In this document: positions 31,389 to 38,291 of the stretch, piece after piece
How the letters are laid out: each line of letters starts with the position of its first letter
How positions within the stretch are numbered: the stretch's first letter is position 1
DNA from: a virus
Length of the DNA stretch: 64,000 bases
Virus record (IMG/VR): IMGVR_UViG_3300028388_004281
Span: 4,204 to 68,203 of that record
Direction: 5' to 3' (one strand)
Made by a program: the position numbers and the translations under genes
Notes under the pieces: generated by a model
What the model saw: only the letters and a program-made list of their open reading frames with translations
Told to the model about the DNA's origin: nothing
Database searches by the model: none

Positions 31389-33119
31389 CTACTTCGTAAC
31401 GTAGACCAGTTTGTTGATGGCCCGTGTGATTGCGACATACAGCAGATTGTACTCCTGCGTGCGCTGCCACTTCGTGCGGGCCATAGGGTGCGGAAATTCG
31501 CTGCCGTCGCAGTTGAGCAGGAACACGTTGCCGGCCTCCAATCCCTTGGCACGATGTACGCTAGAGAATAGAACGCCCTGCGGCGTAACCAGCTTGGGGC
31601 CCTCGTAGTATCCCTTGGCGTTGCGCTCCGTCTTGCAATCCTTGTTATAGCAGCGGTCCGTAGACTCGTTGTACGAACGGCCGCACTTGGGGCAGATCTT
31701 GCCGGTGAAGATCGTGGATACGTTATCTAGTACGTCTGCGACGGTCTTGGTCCCGTCGGCCAACGTTATTATGCAGTCACGGCGGTCGCCCAGAGCGATT
31801 AGTCGTGGCTCGCTGGGGTTCTTCTTGCGGTGTTCCTTCTCGGTCTCTCGGTCGTACCATGCCTCTGTCTTGTCGATGAGGTCCGGTACGTCCGTGGCGT
31901 CCATGCGCTTGACGAAGTTCACTAGCTCCGTACCGAACTCCCGGCCGCGTACCGTGGCCTTGCGACCCGCCTTGATGAAGCGGAGAGCCTGCGAGATCAG
32001 CGGGGCGTTAACGCGACTCAGTACCATGTCGCCGTCCTGTACCTCGTCGGCATACTTAGACTTGGGCAGCCTGGACACGGAGCCGTCAGTGTTCGACTCA
32101 TGGGCACGAAATATGCAGTCGCCTAGTCTGGATAGGACGGTGTTAGCTTCCGACACGATGGCCTTACCGCAGCGGCGGGTCTCCGTGAGCCGTAACGTGT
32201 CGGCCCCTAGCATCTCACGCACTCGTGGTATGGACTCCGTGTCGGCACCGGCGAACCCGTAGATGGCTTGGTTTACGTCACCCACTACGACTACACTGCG
32301 GCCCGCACGCCGGACGAACTCCTGCTTGCAACGCGGCAGGTCCTGTCCCTCATCGACCATGACTACGTCGCTCTTGAATATAGGGAGGTCCAAGACGACT
32401 GGCAGCCAGTTCTGGTCGTTGAAGTCTATCTCGCCCAGCAGCTTGGGATCGAGGCTGAGACGTAGGATCTCAGGTACGATGCGATACACACGCTCTCGAC
32501 TGCCGTTCAGGTCAACGTCGAAGTGTGCTACTAGTCCGTCGAGTACTTCGTCCGTGACGTGGGTGGGATCGAACTGGCCGTCTTCGTAGCCCGCCAGCGT
32601 CAGCTTGCAGAGGCCTACCAGCTTCTCTACGGCTGGTAGCATGACTGGCTCGCTGCGCAGTATCTCACGTGGGTCCTTGCCGAGATAGTAGGCTACTAGG
32701 TTACGTGTATGACTGTCCGTGACCTGCAGCCTACCGAACGTCTTGTAGATAGCCGAGTTGCCTAACGAATTGACGGTGGCGAACTTTAGCTGTACGCCTG
32801 CAGACACCAATAGGTCAGCCAACCACCCCCACTTCTCTCCGAACTCTGTAACGATGGATTTGTTGAAGGCGCAGTAGGTTATGGTCTTGCAACCGTTGTA
32901 CTGTTGGAGGTGGTCCCAGACTGCCTGTTGTTCGTCGCTTGGTAATACCTCACCCATGCGTTCCACGAACTGGTCCCAGACTTTCCTGGGGGCCAACGAG
33001 GCTGCGCAACCGACGATCATGGTAAACGTCTTGCCAGTGCCCGCTAGAGCCTCGACAACTAGGTTATTGGGACGGCTGCTCTTGCTTTCGGCCAGCTTCT
33101 GTTTAATGGTCTTCTTCAC
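31389..33119 (-). CDS. UvrD/Rep-like superfamily 1 helicase with Zn-finger insertion
   Basis: ALAGTGKT, DEGQD, GD.NQAIYGF.GA, SVHRAKGLE, YVAITRA; CPKC...C...C insert. Confidence 0.92.
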   Translation of the reverse strand: MKKTIKQKLAESKSSRPNNLVVEALAGTGKTFTMIVGCAASLAPRKVWDQFVERMGEVLPSDEQQAVWDHLQQYNGCKTITYCAFNKSIVTEFGEKWGWLADLLVSAGVQLKFATVNSLGNSAIYKTFGRLQVTDSHTRNLVAYYLGKDPREILRSEPVMLPAVEKLVGLCKLTLAGYEDGQFDPTHVTDEVLDGLVAHFDVDLNGSRERVYRIVPEILRLSLDPKLLGEIDFNDQNWLPVVLDLPIFKSDVVMVDEGQDLPRCKQEFVRRAGRSVVVVGDVNQAIYGFAGADTESIPRVREMLGADTLRLTETRRCGKAIVSEANTVLSRLGDCIFRAHESNTDGSVSRLPKSKYADEVQDGDMVLSRVNAPLISQALRFIKAGRKATVRGREFGTELVNFVKRMDATDVPDLIDKTEAWYDRETEKEHRKKNPSEPRLIALGDRRDCIITLADGTKTVADVLDNVSTIFTGKICPKCGRSYNESTDRCYNKDCKTERNAKGYYEGPKLVTPQGVLFSSVHRAKGLEAGNVFLLNCDGSEFPHPMARTKWQRTQEYNLLYVAITRAINKLVYVTK

Positions 33120-33229
33120 GTGTCCGCTCCTGTAGGTAGTATGGTTTAGTAAACTACACGTACTCCCAAACTAAACTCGGGTATCGTGTATAAGCAGCGA
33201 CGAGCCACGTTCTTCTTCGGTCATAATAG

Positions 33230-33508
33230 CTAGAGTCCCGTGGCATTCCGGACAGATGGTAGAAGGTGGCCGTTCTTGCCATACTTGTATGCGTGGAACG
33301 TGTAGCCCTCTTCAGAGCAGCTCACAAAGCCAGTGACTGTCTTGCCTTGTACCGAGACTTGACCCGGTGCCGAGAACATCGTGTCAGGCACACCGATACG
33401 GCGTACGGTGCGGTATACTCCGTCGGAGCAAGGGCAATTACGAACGCCGATGAGTTGTGCCCAGGGGCCTGGTGACAATACCGATTCTGATCCGTTGGGG
33501 CATTTCAT
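33230..33508 (-). CDS. Hypothetical protein
   Basis: Coupled to HTH gene. Confidence 0.55.
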   Translation of the reverse strand: MKCPNGSESVLSPGPWAQLIGVRNCPCSDGVYRTVRRIGVPDTMFSAPGQVSVQGKTVTGFVSCSEEGYTFHAYKYGKNGHLLPSVRNATGL

Positions 33509-33711
33509 GATTGAACCTTTCGTGGGCGGCCACGTCGCTCTGCCCTCCGACGCTTGGAGGCAGAACGGGCTGTGGCAGGATGGACAGTGTACATGACGGC
33601 ACCGTTTGGTAATCGATGAGCCGTTGCCGCAAGACGCCCGCCGCGAATCATGCGGCGGACGTGTGACTCGTCGCAGCCTATGACGGCCGCGGCCTCCTTA
33701 GTTGTTAGCAT
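33505..33711 (-). CDS. Excisionase-like HTH DNA-binding protein
   Basis: MLTTKEAAAVIG...HVRRMIRGGRL.A. Confidence 0.8.
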   Translation of the reverse strand: MLTTKEAAAVIGCDESHVRRMIRGGRLAATAHRLPNGAVMYTVHPATARSASKRRRAERRGRPRKVQS

Positions 33712-33868
33712 CCTCTTCCTCCATTTCGTTTTCATCGTACAGATCGTCCGGGGACAGGTTGTAATTGTGCATGATATGCTGGGCAGCCTGTGCAAGGTAT
33801 TGAGCGCCCGTCCTAGCTAGCTCGTCGAAAAGAAACACGGTGGTTTGGATTGCTTCGTCTCTTGTCAT
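33698..33868 (-). CDS. Hypothetical protein
   Basis: AAGGAG RBS; MTRDEAIQ... Confidence 0.55.
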   Translation of the reverse strand: MTRDEAIQTTVFLFDELARTGAQYLAQAAQHIMHNYNLSPDDLYDENEMEEEDANN

Positions 33869-33940
33869 AATCGTTCTCCTTGGTAATCGTCGTGCGGTCA
33901 ATTTGTCCGTCGTCGTACCGTAGTTCAGTTGATTTATCTA

Positions 33941-34213
33941 TCAGCTCCTTGTGATCCACAGAACAATCTTACCACGGCTGGGACCTCTACCAGGATAGTT
34001 GCGGTCTGCTCTCCAGAACCTCACATCCCTATCTTCTGTGACACCCGCATACTCTCTCGCGCTATCCCAATCGTAGTCAAAGTATTCTACATTCTTGTCA
34101 TCATTCATGGCGTACAATGTTCCCAGCATGCACTCCCACAACGCCGGGCGGTGCTTCTTAGTGGGCTTCATCTTGCGACCCTCAACATCGAACTTTCTCG
34201 TCGTCTCGTTCAT
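33941..34213 (-). CDS. Small early protein
   Basis: Starts at repeat ATG. Confidence 0.7.
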   Translation of the reverse strand: MNETTRKFDVEGRKMKPTKKHRPALWECMLGTLYAMNDDKNVEYFDYDWDSAREYAGVTEDRDVRFWRADRNYPGRGPSRGKIVLWITRS

Positions 34214-34395
34214 CTGTCAGCTCCTTTCACAACTTCGTTCTTCCGAACTACGACCGCTTGGCCGCCGAGATCCCAGTCCCGGCATTCGAGGGTTTCGTTA
34301 AGCACGACTGCCACCCACAGCGTGTGACCGTTGCGTGTCCAGACGACCACGTCTCCCGGTTTGATTCTGTCAGAATTGGTTCGTCGTTTCTTCAT
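34210..34395 (-). CDS. Small early protein (SH3/KOW-like)
   Basis: IKPGDVVVW pattern; starts at repeat ATG. Confidence 0.65.
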   Translation of the reverse strand: MKKRRTNSDRIKPGDVVVWTRNGHTLWVAVVLNETLECRDWDLGGQAVVVRKNEVVKGADR

Positions 34396-34411
34396 CTGTC
34401 AGCTCCTTGTA

Positions 34412-34693
34412 TCATGCACCATAATTGCCGCGAGGGAACGCCTCGCGTAGGATTCTCTCCTGCCTCGCCTCAGACTGCGACCCGAGCCACTCCACCGCCT
34501 CCGGGTCGTCCCCATGGTCCATCGGATAGCCCGTCGCAAACCCGCAGGTTGTCACCGCTTCCCTTACATCCGATGCGTCGAGTGTGACCTGCTCGGCATC
34601 GCCGAAGCATGCCAGTATGTCGTACCCGATGCGCTGCCACGTCCTCTTCAACGCCCTGATTGCTCGCTCTTCTATTTCAATGTTCTTCTTCAT
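34412..34693 (-). CDS. Small early protein
   Basis: Starts at repeat ATG. Confidence 0.7.
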   Translation of the reverse strand: MKKNIEIEERAIRALKRTWQRIGYDILACFGDAEQVTLDASDVREAVTTCGFATGYPMDHGDDPEAVEWLGSQSEARQERILREAFPRGNYGA

Positions 34694-34721
34694 CTGTCAG
34701 CTCCTTGTCATTGAGGGACCT

Positions 34722-34776
34722 GCCTCATCAGCACCGGTAAGTCAGTTCCGGCGGACGCCCTGAGGGGCGTTTCGGC
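34722..34776 (-). ncRNA. Hammerhead ribozyme, type II
   Basis: gcc-GAAAC-GCCC ctca GGGC-GTC-cgccgg(10-nt loop)ccggtg-CTGATGA-ggc; all core nucleotides and three stems present. Confidence 0.88.
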
Positions 34777-35069
34777 TATAGCTTGCGTCCGAAGGTTACC
34801 AGCTCACCTCGGCATTCGTAAGTCAATGCTACACGGCGGAGGTTGCCGTTGTCGTATCCGTAGCAGTCCACCATGACCCACGTGTTAGGACGAAGACTAA
34901 ACAAGTGGCGATCGTGATCACGAGTGAACCAATACCATTCCTTGCCATCGATTTCGAGGACTACGAACGGAGTTTCGCCAGGCCCACCATAACAAGCACT
35001 GGTTCCGGTCCGTACCACCCAGGCGCTACCGCTGATCTTCGTTCCTTTGGTCACTTTCTTCGTTGCCAT
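34776..35069 (-). CDS. Small early protein
   Basis: Starts at repeat-variant ATG. Confidence 0.65.
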   Translation of the reverse strand: MATKKVTKGTKISGSAWVVRTGTSACYGGPGETPFVVLEIDGKEWYWFTRDHDRHLFSLRPNTWVMVDCYGYDNGNLRRVALTYECRGELVTFGRKL

Positions 35070-35099
35070 CTGTCAGTTCCTTTCCTGAAGGTTAGTAGG

Positions 35100-35282
35100 T
35101 TACACCCGATTTAATTTGCCGTTGGGTGTGACTTCGAAAATCGAGGCCACCCGTGCGTAAGCAGGCAAGCACATCAAAGCATCGTACATACAATCGGCCT
35201 GGACATCTTTTTCTTCTAACTCTCCGGTTGCGTCGTATCGTTCGTTGCCTCGTTGATAATAGATTCGGTACTTCATCTTCAT
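35100..35282 (-). CDS. Small early protein
   Basis: Starts at repeat-variant ATG. Confidence 0.6.
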   Translation of the reverse strand: MKMKYRIYYQRGNERYDATGELEEKDVQADCMYDALMCLPAYARVASIFEVTPNGKLNRV

Positions 35283-35331
35283 TTGTCAGCTCCTTACGTG
35301 TTGATGGGAATTAGAGAAATCGGTTTGTTGA

Positions 35332-35631
35332 TTAACGGTTTGTCGAGTTGAACTGCTCCAGACGATCAATGCGCTTCAGGTACTCCATGCGAACGGAGTC
35401 AGCCACTTGCCTGTTAGTCAGGTTGGCCAGCACGATCCTACGCAGAGCATCTTCGTTCAAGTCGTTGACGACTCTAGTAAGACTATCCCTCTTGCATTCG
35501 GGGCATTCATGACGATTGACAACTCCATGTCTCTTCATCTCAACCACCGTTCGCGAATTGACAGCGAGTCTGGCATCCAGGTTTCGCTCTACCGTTTTGT
35601 CGCAGCAACCGTAGTGAATCTTGACCTTCAT
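35332..35631 (-). CDS. Small early protein with Cys motifs
   Basis: AGGAG RBS; CC and CPEC. Confidence 0.6.
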   Translation of the reverse strand: MKVKIHYGCCDKTVERNLDARLAVNSRTVVEMKRHGVVNRHECPECKRDSLTRVVNDLNEDALRRIVLANLTNRQVADSVRMEYLKRIDRLEQFNSTNR

Positions 35632-35642
35632 CGTTTCGCTCC

Positions 35643-35705
35643 TGGGTTTCGTGGTGACTCGTCAGTACCGGTAAGTCAGTTCCGGCGGACGCCCCGAGGG
35701 GCGTT
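35643..35705 (-). ncRNA. Chimeric or degenerate hammerhead element
   Basis: 5' part nearly identical to 34728-34771; 3' part CTGACGA-GTcaccAC-GAAACCCA like the 35964 copy. Confidence 0.6.
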
Positions 35706-35709
35706 GACG

Positions 35710-35946
35710 TTACTCCTCTTCTACCACCTCGATCATCTCTGCGGCATACGGATCGTACTCTGAATCGACAAGGCCTGTCAGACGACACGTAACGTTGATG
35801 GGAAACAGTTCAACATCGTTGTTGCCGCAGTAAACTTGGACGAGGTAGTCGAACACCTTCCGCCAGTCCTCTCCAGGACCGATGACCCAAGTGATGGGCT
35901 CAATTCGTCCGTCGTCGTACCGTAGTTCGCAGTTCAGTTGATTCAT
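35710..35946 (-). CDS. Small acidic early protein (first gene of leftward transcript)
   Basis: Starts at repeat ATG. Confidence 0.7.
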   Translation of the reverse strand: MNQLNCELRYDDGRIEPITWVIGPGEDWRKVFDYLVQVYCGNNDVELFPINVTCRLTGLVDSEYDPYAAEMIEVVEEE

Positions 35947-35963
35947 CTGTCAGCTCCTTGTGT

Positions 35964-36013
35964 TGGGTTTCGTCGCAACTCGTCAGGCACGGCTGCGAAT
36001 GCCGTGCGACCCA
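35964..36013 (-). ncRNA. Hammerhead ribozyme, type III
   Basis: TGG-GTC-gcacggc(7-nt loop)gccgtgc-CTGACGA-GTtgcgAC-GAAAC-CCA. Confidence 0.82.
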
Positions 36014-36310
36014 GAGGGGCTGCTCGTTTGCGCGAGCACCCCGTGGCTTGGGCGACCTCCTCCCAACTCCGTCGAGTTGCGTTGCATCCGACCGATCCGG
36101 CTGCTGTTGTGTGCTACTTGCTTTCGCTTGCGCTGCGGTGGTTAGCCGCGAGCCGGACCCCGCGTCAGTCCTGCGGTGGGTCAGGAGTCGAATGCCGCTC
36201 CTGTGGAAGAGGTCTCGGTTGTGTGCCCGGTTAGATCCGGGTAGGGGAAACGGTTGTCGTTCGTTTCCGCCGTTCGAGTTGTCAAAGATCAGTAACCGTT
36301 AAGCGTCCTT
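36014..36310 (-). ncRNA. Highly structured non-coding leader of about 300 nt
   Basis: At least 6 hairpins and a longer-range stem; no credible ORF. Confidence 0.55.
36279..36291 (-). promoter_or_regulatory. boxA-like antitermination element TGATCTTTGACAA
   Basis: Close to rrn/nut boxA consensus TGCTCTTTAACAA; about 25 nt downstream of predicted start. Confidence 0.65.
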
Positions 36311-36320
36311 GCCTACGGCA

Positions 36321-36348
36321 AGTATAACGTAGTATCGGCGGAAGTAAA
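36321..36348 (-). promoter_or_regulatory. sigma70-like early promoter TTTACT-N16-TATACT
   Basis: Near-consensus hexamers with an upstream AT-rich tract. Confidence 0.6.
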
Positions 36349-36399
36349 TACCCGTAGCGGGTAATTCCTGCAAAAAACTGAAAATATTTTAGGGCATGG

Positions 36400-36434
36400 T
36401 AAAACCCCGGTGAATTCGTGGATCCACCGGGGTT
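36400..36434 (-). terminator. Intrinsic terminator downstream of ParB-like gene
   Basis: AACCCCGGTG / CACCGGGGTT stem plus T run on the - strand. Confidence 0.7.
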
Positions 36435-36479
36435 ACAGGTACCCCGAGAGGGGGGGGGGTATTTACCCGTAGCGGGCTA

Positions 36480-37736
36480 TTACACGGGGTCGCCTAGGTC
36501 GATGCCGCCTAGGCACGGGCTGTCGGTCAGTACCGGTATGCCGTCCTCGTCCTTGGAGTACTCCAACGCTAGAGCGTCCGTCGTCATGCGCTTGTTGGAA
36601 ACGAAGAGGCCCCAAGCTTTGATGAGGATCGCGATGCGTTCGGCCATGCTGCCACCGTCCTCCTGTATCATGGCGGACAGTGCCTGTCGTACCGGATCGA
36701 ACTTGACATCACCTGCTGCCAGTAGCACGAAGAACTCGCAGGCCTTGTCCCAGTACTTGAAGTCTACCAGCTGTTCACTAGGCTGCGCCGTTACGCTGTA
36801 CTCGCCGTCCTCGCCCGTACCGGATGCCGCCATCAGGTACAGTAGTCCGGAGGAGTAGCCAGGCGATAGATACTTGCCGACCGTATTGGTAGTACCGTTC
36901 TCCTCGTAGATGTGCCGCACCGCATCCAGCAGCTTGGTGTGGCGGGACAGGAAGTCAAGCGCCTCCGCGTGCGTGCGCCTAGGAGCGTACGCGTCGGAGC
37001 CTGCGCCTGTACGTGCCCACGTGATACGTATGGCATGGTCTAGCATCCGTGCCAGCCGTTGACGGTCTCTGCGGTCTACCGTCTTGAAGTACTCGCTGCG
37101 AAAGATTACGTCGGCTAGAGTACGAGGACGACCTGTGTCAATAGTGTTGACTACTGCGTCGGTCTCGTCGATACCGAAGACTACCAGCTTGTCGATGGTA
37201 GGCTCGGTCTTCCAGTTGTCCCATTGCCCCTGCTTGGCCGTCCACTCCAGGGCGGCGAGGGCCAGGGCGATGAGCGTGTGCTGGCCATTGAGGATAAGGC
37301 CGGTACGGCCGATGATGATCGGCTCGCCGTTCAGCTGCCAGTTACCTCGCAGGATCTCCTGCCGAAGTACCATGACGGTACCTAATGACAGGTGTCGGTT
37401 ACTGATGTTGTTGTTACAGCGTACCTTGACTCCTTGCTGGTCCTTGGCAGCTGGTAACCGTAGGTGGAACTCGGTGCCGAACTTGACGTTCTCCGACTCC
37501 TCCTGCCATCCTAGCAGCTCCTTGGCCTTGTCGGCGGTCAGGGGCGTTGCCAGCTGCGTGCGTAGTCTGTCGTATAATACCTCGCGTTTCGGGGTTGCCA
37601 GCTCCTTCTTCTGGGACTTAGGTTTCTTGGTGGTTGACGTCCTGTCCGACCGAGACGGGGCGGACGCGGTGCCTTGGGACTTCGTACTCTTGCTGCTGGG
37701 GGTCTTCCTCCTGGGGGTCTTCGTAGCTGTTACCAT
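36480..37736 (-). CDS. ParB/Srx-like N-terminal domain protein with basic disordered tail
   Basis: NR.L, G.W.LNGEPI, NGQHTL.A, IDTGRPRTL.D. Confidence 0.7.
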   Translation of the reverse strand: MVTATKTPRRKTPSSKSTKSQGTASAPSRSDRTSTTKKPKSQKKELATPKREVLYDRLRTQLATPLTADKAKELLGWQEESENVKFGTEFHLRLPAAKDQQGVKVRCNNNISNRHLSLGTVMVLRQEILRGNWQLNGEPIIIGRTGLILNGQHTLIALALAALEWTAKQGQWDNWKTEPTIDKLVVFGIDETDAVVNTIDTGRPRTLADVIFRSEYFKTVDRRDRQRLARMLDHAIRITWARTGAGSDAYAPRRTHAEALDFLSRHTKLLDAVRHIYEENGTTNTVGKYLSPGYSSGLLYLMAASGTGEDGEYSVTAQPSEQLVDFKYWDKACEFFVLLAAGDVKFDPVRQALSAMIQEDGGSMAERIAILIKAWGLFVSNKRMTTDALALEYSKDEDGIPVLTDSPCLGGIDLGDPV

Positions 37737-37820
37737 TCCGTAGCTCCTTGATGTACTGGTGGTAGAAATACTCCGGCCTCTCTTCCGCCAGCTTGCGTAG
37801 CTGGCTTAGCCTATTGCGTT

Positions 37821-38018
37821 TCATACGATCCTTCCTACCGTCACTGGCACAGCGTCTGTGACGGGCTCTAGAGTAGTACGTATGTCCCTGCGGCTGTATG
37901 CCGCAACTACCTCCCGTGCATGATCATTGTCATGCTTGCCGTACGGCACGCCGTCCACGTCACCGTACTCACTCCTGTCGACCCCTAACAATGCAGCGGT
38001 TTCAATCACTCTCACCAC
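37821..38018 (-). CDS. Hypothetical protein
   Basis: AAGGAG upstream. Confidence 0.45.
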   Translation of the reverse strand: MVRVIETAALLGVDRSEYGDVDGVPYGKHDNDHAREVVAAYSRRDIRTTLEPVTDAVPVTVGRIV

Positions 38019-38291
38019 GTCCTTAACTCCTTGTCGTGAGGGTACTAAAACGAAAACGGCACACGCTAGTAATATAACGTATGCCTAGGTCACGTAATAG
38101 CCTACTACCTAATAGTACAGTAGTACTACTTAGGAGTAGACCGTGCCTTATACGTTAGTATAATGGTTTTTGACCCCTAAGTAAATAGGGGGGTAGAGGG
38201 GTAAATTTCGGCGGTTTTCGGGGGCGGCCTACGCGGCGAGTATAGTATTACTAACGGCCCATGCAGGGCCTCTAGAAAGCGAAGGTGCGAC

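Follow-up and report, generated by a model that had tools for sequence, protein, structure and literature searches.

Hammerhead ribozymes have already been described at gene boundaries in phages. Perreault et al. (2011; PMC3088659) reported hammerheads of types I-III that flank individual genes or short runs of genes in prophages. Three clustered arrays cleaved in vitro, and the array from A. tumefaciens also cleaved in vivo in E. coli. Processing into gene-length mRNAs was proposed in that paper, and spliced or circular products were held to be possible but, in the passages cited here, were not detected. The same passages describe a stem II that is commonly just 2 bp long and pseudoknots in all three types. 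A 2019 review (PMC6765202) lists the function of such hammerheads as unresolved in the portion that we cite. The DNA analyzed here is a 64,000-nt stretch (bases 4204-68203, hereafter the window) of IMG/VR record IMGVR_UViG_3300028388_004281, a 68,203-bp viral record with direct terminal repeats that is rated complete. An initial annotation of the window had placed three hammerhead elements on the minus strand, punctuating a transcript of small genes, and all three, here designated HH1, HH2 and HH3, were recovered at those positions.

HH1 and HH2 are ordinary hammerheads of kinds already known between phage genes, whereas HH3 appears to be a chimera of two hammerhead types. The identity, anatomy, covariation, synteny and between-gene placement of the elements were read directly from the window and from related loci, and together they favor an operon in which HH2 and HH1 would cleave and uncouple blocks of cistrons while HH3 is inactive; we regard this account as probable, though well short of certain. 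With HH2 and HH1 in the same orientation on either side of genes A-D, the locus is a cluster in the sense of at least two same-orientation hammerheads flanking a gene block. In having mixed types in one orientation between small phage genes it resembles the clustered prophage arrays of C. scindens, A. caulinodans and A. tumefaciens (the ardA triple array) as they are presented in the cited passages of PMC3088659, and the processing and circularization hypotheses apply to it equally. It differs from them in that one of its three elements is a type II/type III chimera predicted to be inactive, and in being known here from sequence alone. Those passages already contain both the clustering of hammerheads around phage genes and the proposal that they process or circularize transcripts, and the general picture of 2011 is unchanged by our findings. 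What these findings add is a further well-documented phage operon, with a small-gene block set between hammerheads of two topologies and with exact predicted cut sites and fragment sizes. The coordinates of all features are collected in Table 1.

HH1 is a canonical type II hammerhead whose self-cleavage is predicted from sequence and fold. In a search of the whole window, the Rfam model Hammerhead_II (RF02276) matched HH1 over positions 1-66 of 66 with 42.7 bits (cut-off 37, E-value 2.2e-5). A descriptor made of the core boxes and minimum stem lengths located it at 34776-34722, with 6 bp in stem I, 3 bp in stem II and 5 bp plus an A-U pair in stem III. The core is complete around three helices, of which I and III are closed and II is open, and the lowest-energy fold from RNAfold is the hammerhead fold itself (-21.4 kcal/mol). 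The initial annotation had described a full type II element cleaved after a GUC, between 34754 and 34753, with a GACTT loop able to pair with a downstream AGGTC; each of these readings was borne out.

The family to which HH1 belongs was surveyed by scanning viral contigs with a degenerate stem I/core pattern, which returned more than 119 stretches that reduced to 104 unique rows; the counts given for type II elements are all among the matches listed. A canonical type II arrangement, with GAAA and a stem III hairpin upstream, was present in 103 of the 104 rows, and HH3 was the sole non-canonical row. A Watson-Crick pseudoknot partner accompanied all four GAUC loops, the single GAGC loop and 86 of 97 GACC loops. 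The partner tracks the sequence of the loop, and the pseudoknot covaries in the family. Among the 104 rows, the GACU variant of the loop was found in HH1 and HH3 only. HH1 agrees with type II hammerheads that have a pseudoknot between loop I and the 3' tail (RF02276, and PMC3088659 in the passages cited) in its full core, closed helices I and III, open 3-bp helix II and 5-bp pseudoknot. It departs from them in its loop, GACUU where GACC is usual, so that the pseudoknot contains one G.U pair. It has no extra U after CUGAUGA, a form common to 26 of the 104 rows.

The position of HH1 was compared with that of 99 unique type II elements having at least 300 nt of flank. In 79 of these the element begins within 40 nt of the stop codon of an upstream open reading frame (ORF), with a median gap of 0, and in 68 a Shine-Dalgarno sequence, start codon and ORF of at least 40 codons follow within 80 nt. 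Both features were present in 51 of 99 elements versus 61 of the 990 slots chosen at random from these loci. Like most of these members, HH1 has a stop codon on one side and the following ribosome-binding site (RBS) on the other: its stem II shares its first base with the gene D stop codon UAG (34778-34776), the element ends 22 nt ahead of the Shine-Dalgarno sequence of gene E, and the gene E ATG stands 21 nt past the pseudoknot. The placement of HH1 thus matches the stop-codon-to-RBS pattern of the family. All three elements of the window are intergenic and just upstream of an RBS, as first annotated, and each is followed by a Shine-Dalgarno sequence and an ATG (at 35946 for HH2, 35631 for HH3 and 34693 for HH1).

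Three other loci from the type II survey had unusual features. L010:3-1579 carries three type II hammerheads in 1.6 kb, and the same Shine-Dalgarno/start cassette comes after each; it is a clustered array of the published kind. In the row from L078 (minus strand, ~3480-3560) stem III contains a long structured insert, and in that from L098 (7960-8090) two additional hairpins separate CUGAGGA from the stem II strand; judged by GAAA and stem III, both are canonical.

HH2 is a type III hammerhead of a recurrent phage subclass, and its sequence predicts self-cleavage. The descriptor stems are 7 bp (I), 2 bp (II) and 4 bp plus an A-U pair (III); the core is conserved, helices I and II are closed and III is open, and positions A15.1-U16.1 and 10.1-11.1 are paired. 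When the window was shuffled 300 times with its dinucleotide content preserved, the descriptor gave 0.01 type III hits per shuffle at minimum thresholds, and none of the 300 matched HH2 in strength. The subclass was sought by scanning viral contigs for the 3'-half pattern CTGANGAGTNNNNACGAAAC, which returned 64 stretches. A type III stem I and stem III were present in 24 of these, and stem I was 7 bp long in 19 of the 24. Five rows of the survey were copies of one weak coding-region match, and the remaining 40 had no hammerhead features.

Sixteen unique sequences, including HH2 and the copy in the related locus L003, gave a nearly gap-free alignment (A1). Paired cells made up 88.1% of the alignment compared with 66.1% after shuffling (0 of 500 shuffles as high) and 31-43% for slid partners, and the covariation score was 0.609 versus 0.162 for shuffled alignments. 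Changes on both sides were found at 7 of 7 pairs of stem I, 6 of 8 pairs of stem III and 2 of 4 pairs of the pseudoknot; pseudoknot pair 22-45, for example, occurs as GC (7), CG (3), AU (2) and UA (2). The partners in this pseudoknot are loop I (AUUNGUA) and the "loop" of the 2-bp stem II. The subclass is characterized by a fixed 7-bp stem I, a 7-nt loop, a GU-NNNN-AC stem II and the loop-loop pseudoknot. Covariation in homologues, whose lack the initial annotation had listed among the grounds for refutation, was thus seen in the pseudoknot of the HH1 family and in stems I and III and the pseudoknot of the HH2 subclass. In its core, GUC, open helix III and closed helices I and II, HH2 conforms to type III (RF00008, and the forms with a 2-bp stem II and a pseudoknot in the cited passages of PMC3088659), and the stems I and III and loop-loop pseudoknot of its subclass covary. 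It is unlike that type in scoring far below the Rfam cut-off, in the fixed dimensions of stem I, loop and GU-NNNN-AC, and in the hairpin that usually lies upstream.

Relatives of the locus were found through the helicase encoded downstream. A search with this protein identified L003-L008, of which L003 and L008 were nearest (58% identity for the helicase), and both carry a hammerhead of the HH2 subclass. In L003 the copy (4724-4775) is flanked on one side by the first small gene (ATG at 4788) and on the other by a 418-aa ORF (2842-4098) with a blastn match to the 418-aa gene of the window. Stem I, stem III and the pseudoknot of this copy all differ from those of HH2 and yet still pair. A complete relative, record G001, contains exactly one HH2-type element. 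When the minus-strand block was compared with L003, L004 and L006 by blastn, only the helicase and the 418-aa gene matched, and the leader of HH2 is not conserved as DNA. A search with the 418-aa protein found one relative locus, L002 (50% identity), in which Rfam at E<=10 listed no hammerhead; at the corresponding positions of L003-L006, Rfam at E<=1 gave no ribozyme of another class. A non-coding leader of 0.5-0.7 kb separates the 418-aa gene from the type III hammerhead in both phages (L003:4099-4787; window 35947-36479), and the two leaders have no detectable DNA similarity.

Several results weigh against this view of HH2 and of the locus. The Rfam model Hammerhead_3 (RF00008) gave HH2 25.5 bits in a 4-kb search (E 0.026), well under the cut-off of 48.5, and did not list it at all in the whole-window search at E<=10, so that of the Rfam checks suggested in the initial annotation only that of HH1 exceeded its cut-off; HH3 gave a partial match of 21.3 bits. 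The assignment of HH2 to type III rests on alignment A1, both HH2 and the L003 copy having been missed by Rfam, and rows had entered A1 only if they had the core motif and 6 or more stem I pairs, which leaves stem III and the pseudoknot as the unselected evidence. The hammerhead fold of HH2, computed without the pseudoknot, has -16.6 kcal/mol compared with -19.1 for the nested lowest-energy fold. An upstream ORF stop lies close by in only 4 of 17 members of the subclass, and for this reason we view HH2 as a leader element rather than an element between cistrons. The HH2-type element is absent from the more distant relatives G002 and G004, and in a search with RF02276 HH1 had no counterpart in L003, L004, L005, L006 or L008 (best match 17.7 bits, in an unrelated place); the elements are therefore dispensable for the gene block.

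The score and the omission from the whole-window search are what would speak for HH2 as a chance match, with HH1 the only real element. We find this scarcely credible: the shuffles never produced a match of its strength, the subclass covaries, and syntenic copies with compensatory changes stand in L003 and L008. The L003 copy was likewise not listed by Rfam at E<=1, and the low score of HH2 therefore reflects the model and not the element. The type III element called at 35964-36013 in the initial annotation was accordingly upheld by descriptor, shuffles, covariation and synteny. A compact, covarying type III subclass so far under the Rfam cut-off implies that phage surveys relying on these cut-offs under-count it.

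A GC-rich hairpin stands directly 5' of HH2 (Table 1), and the 45 nt upstream of the element fold at -19.5 kcal/mol. Within the subclass (HH2; L131-L183, L197) the upstream hairpin averaged -15.1 kcal/mol compared with -8.8 in control windows, and the 45-nt upstream fold was at or below -12 kcal/mol in 13 of 17 members. A hairpin so placed would serve as a 3'-end cap for the upstream product once a type III element has cleaved.

HH3 had been annotated at 35643-35705 as a third element of the same kind. It is hammerhead-like and holds a full core, with CUGACGA, GAAA and GUC all present, but it is not a full hammerhead: UCAA occupies the site before stem III at which a type II element has GAAA, a C.A mismatch falls at 1.1-2.1, and the Rfam type II model matches only in part (model positions 7-56). 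Two repeats account for its sequence. Repeat D2 aligns 35655-35705 with 34721-34771 of HH1 (51 nt, 92% identity), repeat D4 aligns 35643-35665 with 35964-35986 of HH2 (23 nt, 87% identity), and the two overlap at the CUGACGAG box. Read 5' to 3', HH3 consists of the stem III hairpin of HH1, the GUC and a stem I with the GACU loop, followed by the mini stem II, GAAA and CCCA of HH2. We infer that HH3 arose within this genome as a chimera, its 5' part HH1-like and its 3' part HH2-like. In the simplest case a type II element and a type III element downstream of it, in the same orientation, would have undergone deletion or recombination at the CUGAYGAG core boxes that they share. HH3 would then be a clear natural type II/type III chimera joined at the core box, and direct evidence of recombination between elements. 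No second hybrid was found among the 104 type II-pattern rows (of the matches listed) or the 64 type III 3'-half stretches, and a metagenome scan with a hybrid-specific pattern returned 6 stretches, one a canonical type III element (L197) and five coding-sequence matches, and no hybrid.

HH3 is unable to form the canonical three-way junction. In its lowest-energy fold, CGUCA (35709-35705) pairs with UGACG (35664-35660) of the catalytic box and closes a three-way junction of another kind. This closed junction has a predicted energy of -22.8 kcal/mol, compared with -16.8 for three independent hairpins, -10.4 for a flap-type type III fold with a 2-bp stem III stacked on the hairpin, and -1.2 for a pure type III fold. 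Aligned as type III with model R1, HH3 scores 28.5 bits; of the 5 pairs of stem III, 2 are disrupted, and a 6-bp hairpin ties up the 5' strand. With part of the catalytic box sequestered in the predicted fold, HH3 is probably inactive. Three other pairings were rejected by eye, namely type II with a distant GAAA, type I using a second GAAAC and an AAGGUC site, and type III using the second GAAAC; each left at most 3 stem pairs or an A.A at 1.1-2.1.

The integrity of the core of HH3 counts against its being inactive, as a long-dead relic need not keep every catalytic nucleotide. All three elements could cleave if HH3 worked through a non-canonical topology of three closed hairpin helices, in which the downstream GAAAC would supply G12-A15.1-C15.2 and a 2-bp stem III would form on the five remaining pairs of the hairpin, leaving a "double-flap" nick. 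The hairpin base and the downstream box are both AAC, so that swapping the strands leaves the bases the same; the whole length of HH3 aligns to model R1 as type III; and weak stems III are called common among natural hammerheads in the cited passages of PMC3088659. Because the core is untouched and the swap is between identical AAC bases, we keep a small residual chance for activity through a nicked stem III. The folds competent for this lie 6 to 12 kcal/mol above the closed junction, the C.A at 1.1-2.1 is a mispair that was used in the same passages to reject a hit, neither family's pseudoknot partner is in register, and the surveys above held no other example. We therefore consider cleavage by all three elements distinctly unlikely. 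The inhibitory 5-mer CGUCA starts directly after a stop codon, and a ribosome that ends translation at the gene A UAA (35712-35710) might open the CGUCA/UGACG helix and so unlock HH3. A working hammerhead of undescribed topology, with this lock opened by the terminating ribosome and with core boxes serving as joints for the shuffling of cassettes, is a long shot; if true, cleavage of HH3 would be coupled to translation of the upstream gene.

With HH3 taken as inactive, the two intact elements suggest how the operon might work. We infer cleavage, the chemistry of the ends and the consequences for stability and translation. HH2 and HH1 would cleave co-transcriptionally, after C36008 and C34754, respectively. 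HH2 sits 18 nt ahead of the first Shine-Dalgarno sequence, at the end of a ~300-nt leader that a candidate promoter at 36348-36321 would place ahead of it, and its cut would remove this leader if the promoter match is real. The HH1 cut would part genes A-D from gene E onwards, and HH1 would also set the 3' end of the upstream message. The upstream products would end in a stable hairpin (stem III for HH1, the GC-rich hairpin at 36042-36016 for HH2) and a 2',3'-cyclic phosphate. The downstream mRNAs would start at the stem I hairpin itself, with a 5'-OH and at a fixed distance from the RBS. Hairpins at the 5' terminus and 5'-OH ends slow decay of the RNase E/J type. Cistron blocks might thereby be uncoupled in stability and translation with no need for host RNases. 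In synthetic ribozyme insulators such as RiboJ, a hammerhead before the RBS trims a variable leader and leaves a defined 5' hairpin end, and synthetic hammerhead insulators exploit the same 5'-hairpin geometry. The arrangement found here may act as their natural counterpart, with the differences that RiboJ-type insulators are engineered parts while HH1 and HH2 are natural and predicted, and that HH1 would also define the 3' end of the upstream message. It is a point against this scheme that the promoter and terminator assignments are consensus matches only.

The initial annotation had proposed that self-cleavage cuts the polycistronic RNA into units with 5'-OH ends and a 5' hairpin, or releases segments that can circularize. 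The anatomy of the elements and the usual between-gene placement agree with this reading, which is the standard hypothesis and is already printed in the cited passages of PMC3088659. For the circular form, HH2 and HH1 would release a 1254-nt RNA with four genes, a 5'-OH and a 2',3'-cyclic phosphate, and an RtcB-type host ligase or the reverse ribozyme reaction would close it into an exonuclease-proof message. Two ribozymes in the same orientation do bracket genes A-D, and the idea was raised in those passages. They report no circular or spliced products, HH2 and HH1 are of different types, and we noticed no complementarity that would join the ends, so that we hold a circular message to be very improbable.

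A different explanation is that the hammerheads cleave but are selfish or neutral passengers at gene boundaries, of no use to the operon and with a main evolutionary effect as recombination sites for gene cassettes. The relatives lack HH1 and HH3, two more distant ones also lack HH2, HH3 is itself a recombinant of two ribozymes joined at a shared core box, the flanking genes are unrelated small ORFs without families, and the flanked genes "are not constant" according to the cited passages of PMC3088659. We nevertheless think it unlikely that they are passengers. Compensatory changes keep the stems and pseudoknots across many phages, and the elements hold a fixed register to stop codons and RBSs, which argues for selection on a folded, positioned RNA.

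Table 1. Hammerhead elements, genes and other features of the minus-strand block, by position in the window.
Feature	Position	Strand	Details and basis
HH1, canonical type II hammerhead	34714..34777	-	Rfam RF02276, descriptor, fold
HH1 stem II	34776-34774; 34724-34722	-	3' strand GCC; 5' strand GGC
HH1 GAAA	34773-34770	-	
HH1 stem III hairpin	34770-34755	-	6 bp
HH1 GUC	34756-34754	-	C17 = 34754; predicted cleavage 34754/34753
HH1 stem I hairpin	34753-34732	-	6 bp
HH1 CUGAUGA	34731-34725	-	
HH1 pseudoknot	34743-34739; 34721-34717	-	loop GACUU with AGGUC; 5 bp, one G.U
HH2, type III hammerhead, phage subclass	35964..36013	-	descriptor, shuffles, covariation, synteny
HH2 stem III	36013-36009; 35968-35964	-	UGGGU with ACCCA
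HH2 C17	36008	-	predicted cleavage 36008/36007
HH2 stem I	36007-35987	-	7 bp, loop AUUCGCA
HH2 CUGACGA	35986-35980	-	
HH2 mini stem II	35979-35972	-	GU-UGCG-AC
HH2 GAAA	35971-35968	-	
HH2 pseudoknot		-	UCGCA of loop I can pair with UGCGA of stem II region
GC-rich hairpin directly 5' of HH2	36016..36042	-	GGGGUGCUCG-CGCAAA-CGAGCAGCCCC
HH3, hammerhead-derived chimera	35643..35709	-	repeats D2, D4; Rfam partial; folds
HH3 flank CGUCA	35709-35705	-	
HH3 stem III-like hairpin	35704-35689	-	
HH3 GUC	35690-35688	-	
HH3 stem I hairpin	35687-35666	-	C.A mismatch at 1.1-2.1
HH3 CUGACGA	35665-35659	-	
HH3 mini stem II	35658-35651	-	GU-CACC-AC
HH3 GAAA	35650-35647	-	
HH3 CCCA	35646-35643	-	
Gene A, 78 aa, between HH2 and HH3	35710..35946	-	ORF list; no Pfam/PHROG match
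Gene B, 99 aa, downstream of HH3	35332..35631	-	weak zinc-ribbon match below cut-off
Gene C, 60 aa	35100..35282	-	ORF list; no Pfam/PHROG family
Gene D, 97 aa	34776..35069	-	ORF list; no Pfam/PHROG family
Gene E, 93 aa, first gene past HH1	34412..34693	-	ORF list; no Pfam/PHROG family
Promoter-like match, sigma-70-like	36321..36348	-	TTTACT-16-TATACT; consensus scan only; candidate
Terminator-like hairpin	36401..36432	-	CCCCGGUG...CACCGGGG then UUUU; read from sequence
RBS-spacer-start motif, repeat family D1	34683..34706, 35059-35082, 35272-35295, 35936-35959	-	AAGGAGCUGACAGAUG; repeat analysis
Strong terminator, end of block	30770-30739	-	

The window codes for a tape-measure protein, a portal protein, a large terminase, a DNA polymerase, a primase and a methyltransferase, and the source virus is therefore a tailed phage. 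A megablast search of 33000-38000 against GenBank phages gave no matches. The minus-strand block extends over ~38.0-30.8 kb and is flanked by plus-strand structural and replication modules. It comprises, in order, the 418-aa gene, a terminator-like hairpin, a promoter-like match, about 12 small ORFs without families, a UvrD-like helicase and a strong terminator. The 418-aa protein belongs to PHROG 5931, of unknown function. The layout makes it plausible that the block is an "early" transcript. Among viral contigs gene A had no relative and gene B no useful ones, and as a result no close homologue shows what occupies the positions of HH3 or HH1.

The terminator-like hairpin stands 48 nt past the stop codon of the 418-aa gene, and weak matches to Rfam sRNA families cover its stem. 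A small hairpin, CCCGCUACGGG, occurs twice in the non-coding stretch past this gene, at 36349-36363 and ~36463-36477 (minus strand), one copy on either side of the terminator-like stem. The hexamers TTTACT and TATACT of the promoter-like match recur at 38185-38157 on the minus strand, again in promoter-like form. This second site is faced by a match on the plus strand (38137-38164), an arrangement that suggests a divergent control region between the small-gene block and the replication module. Finally, four of the small genes share a near-identical initiation cassette (family D1), and in two of the four it comes after a hammerhead.

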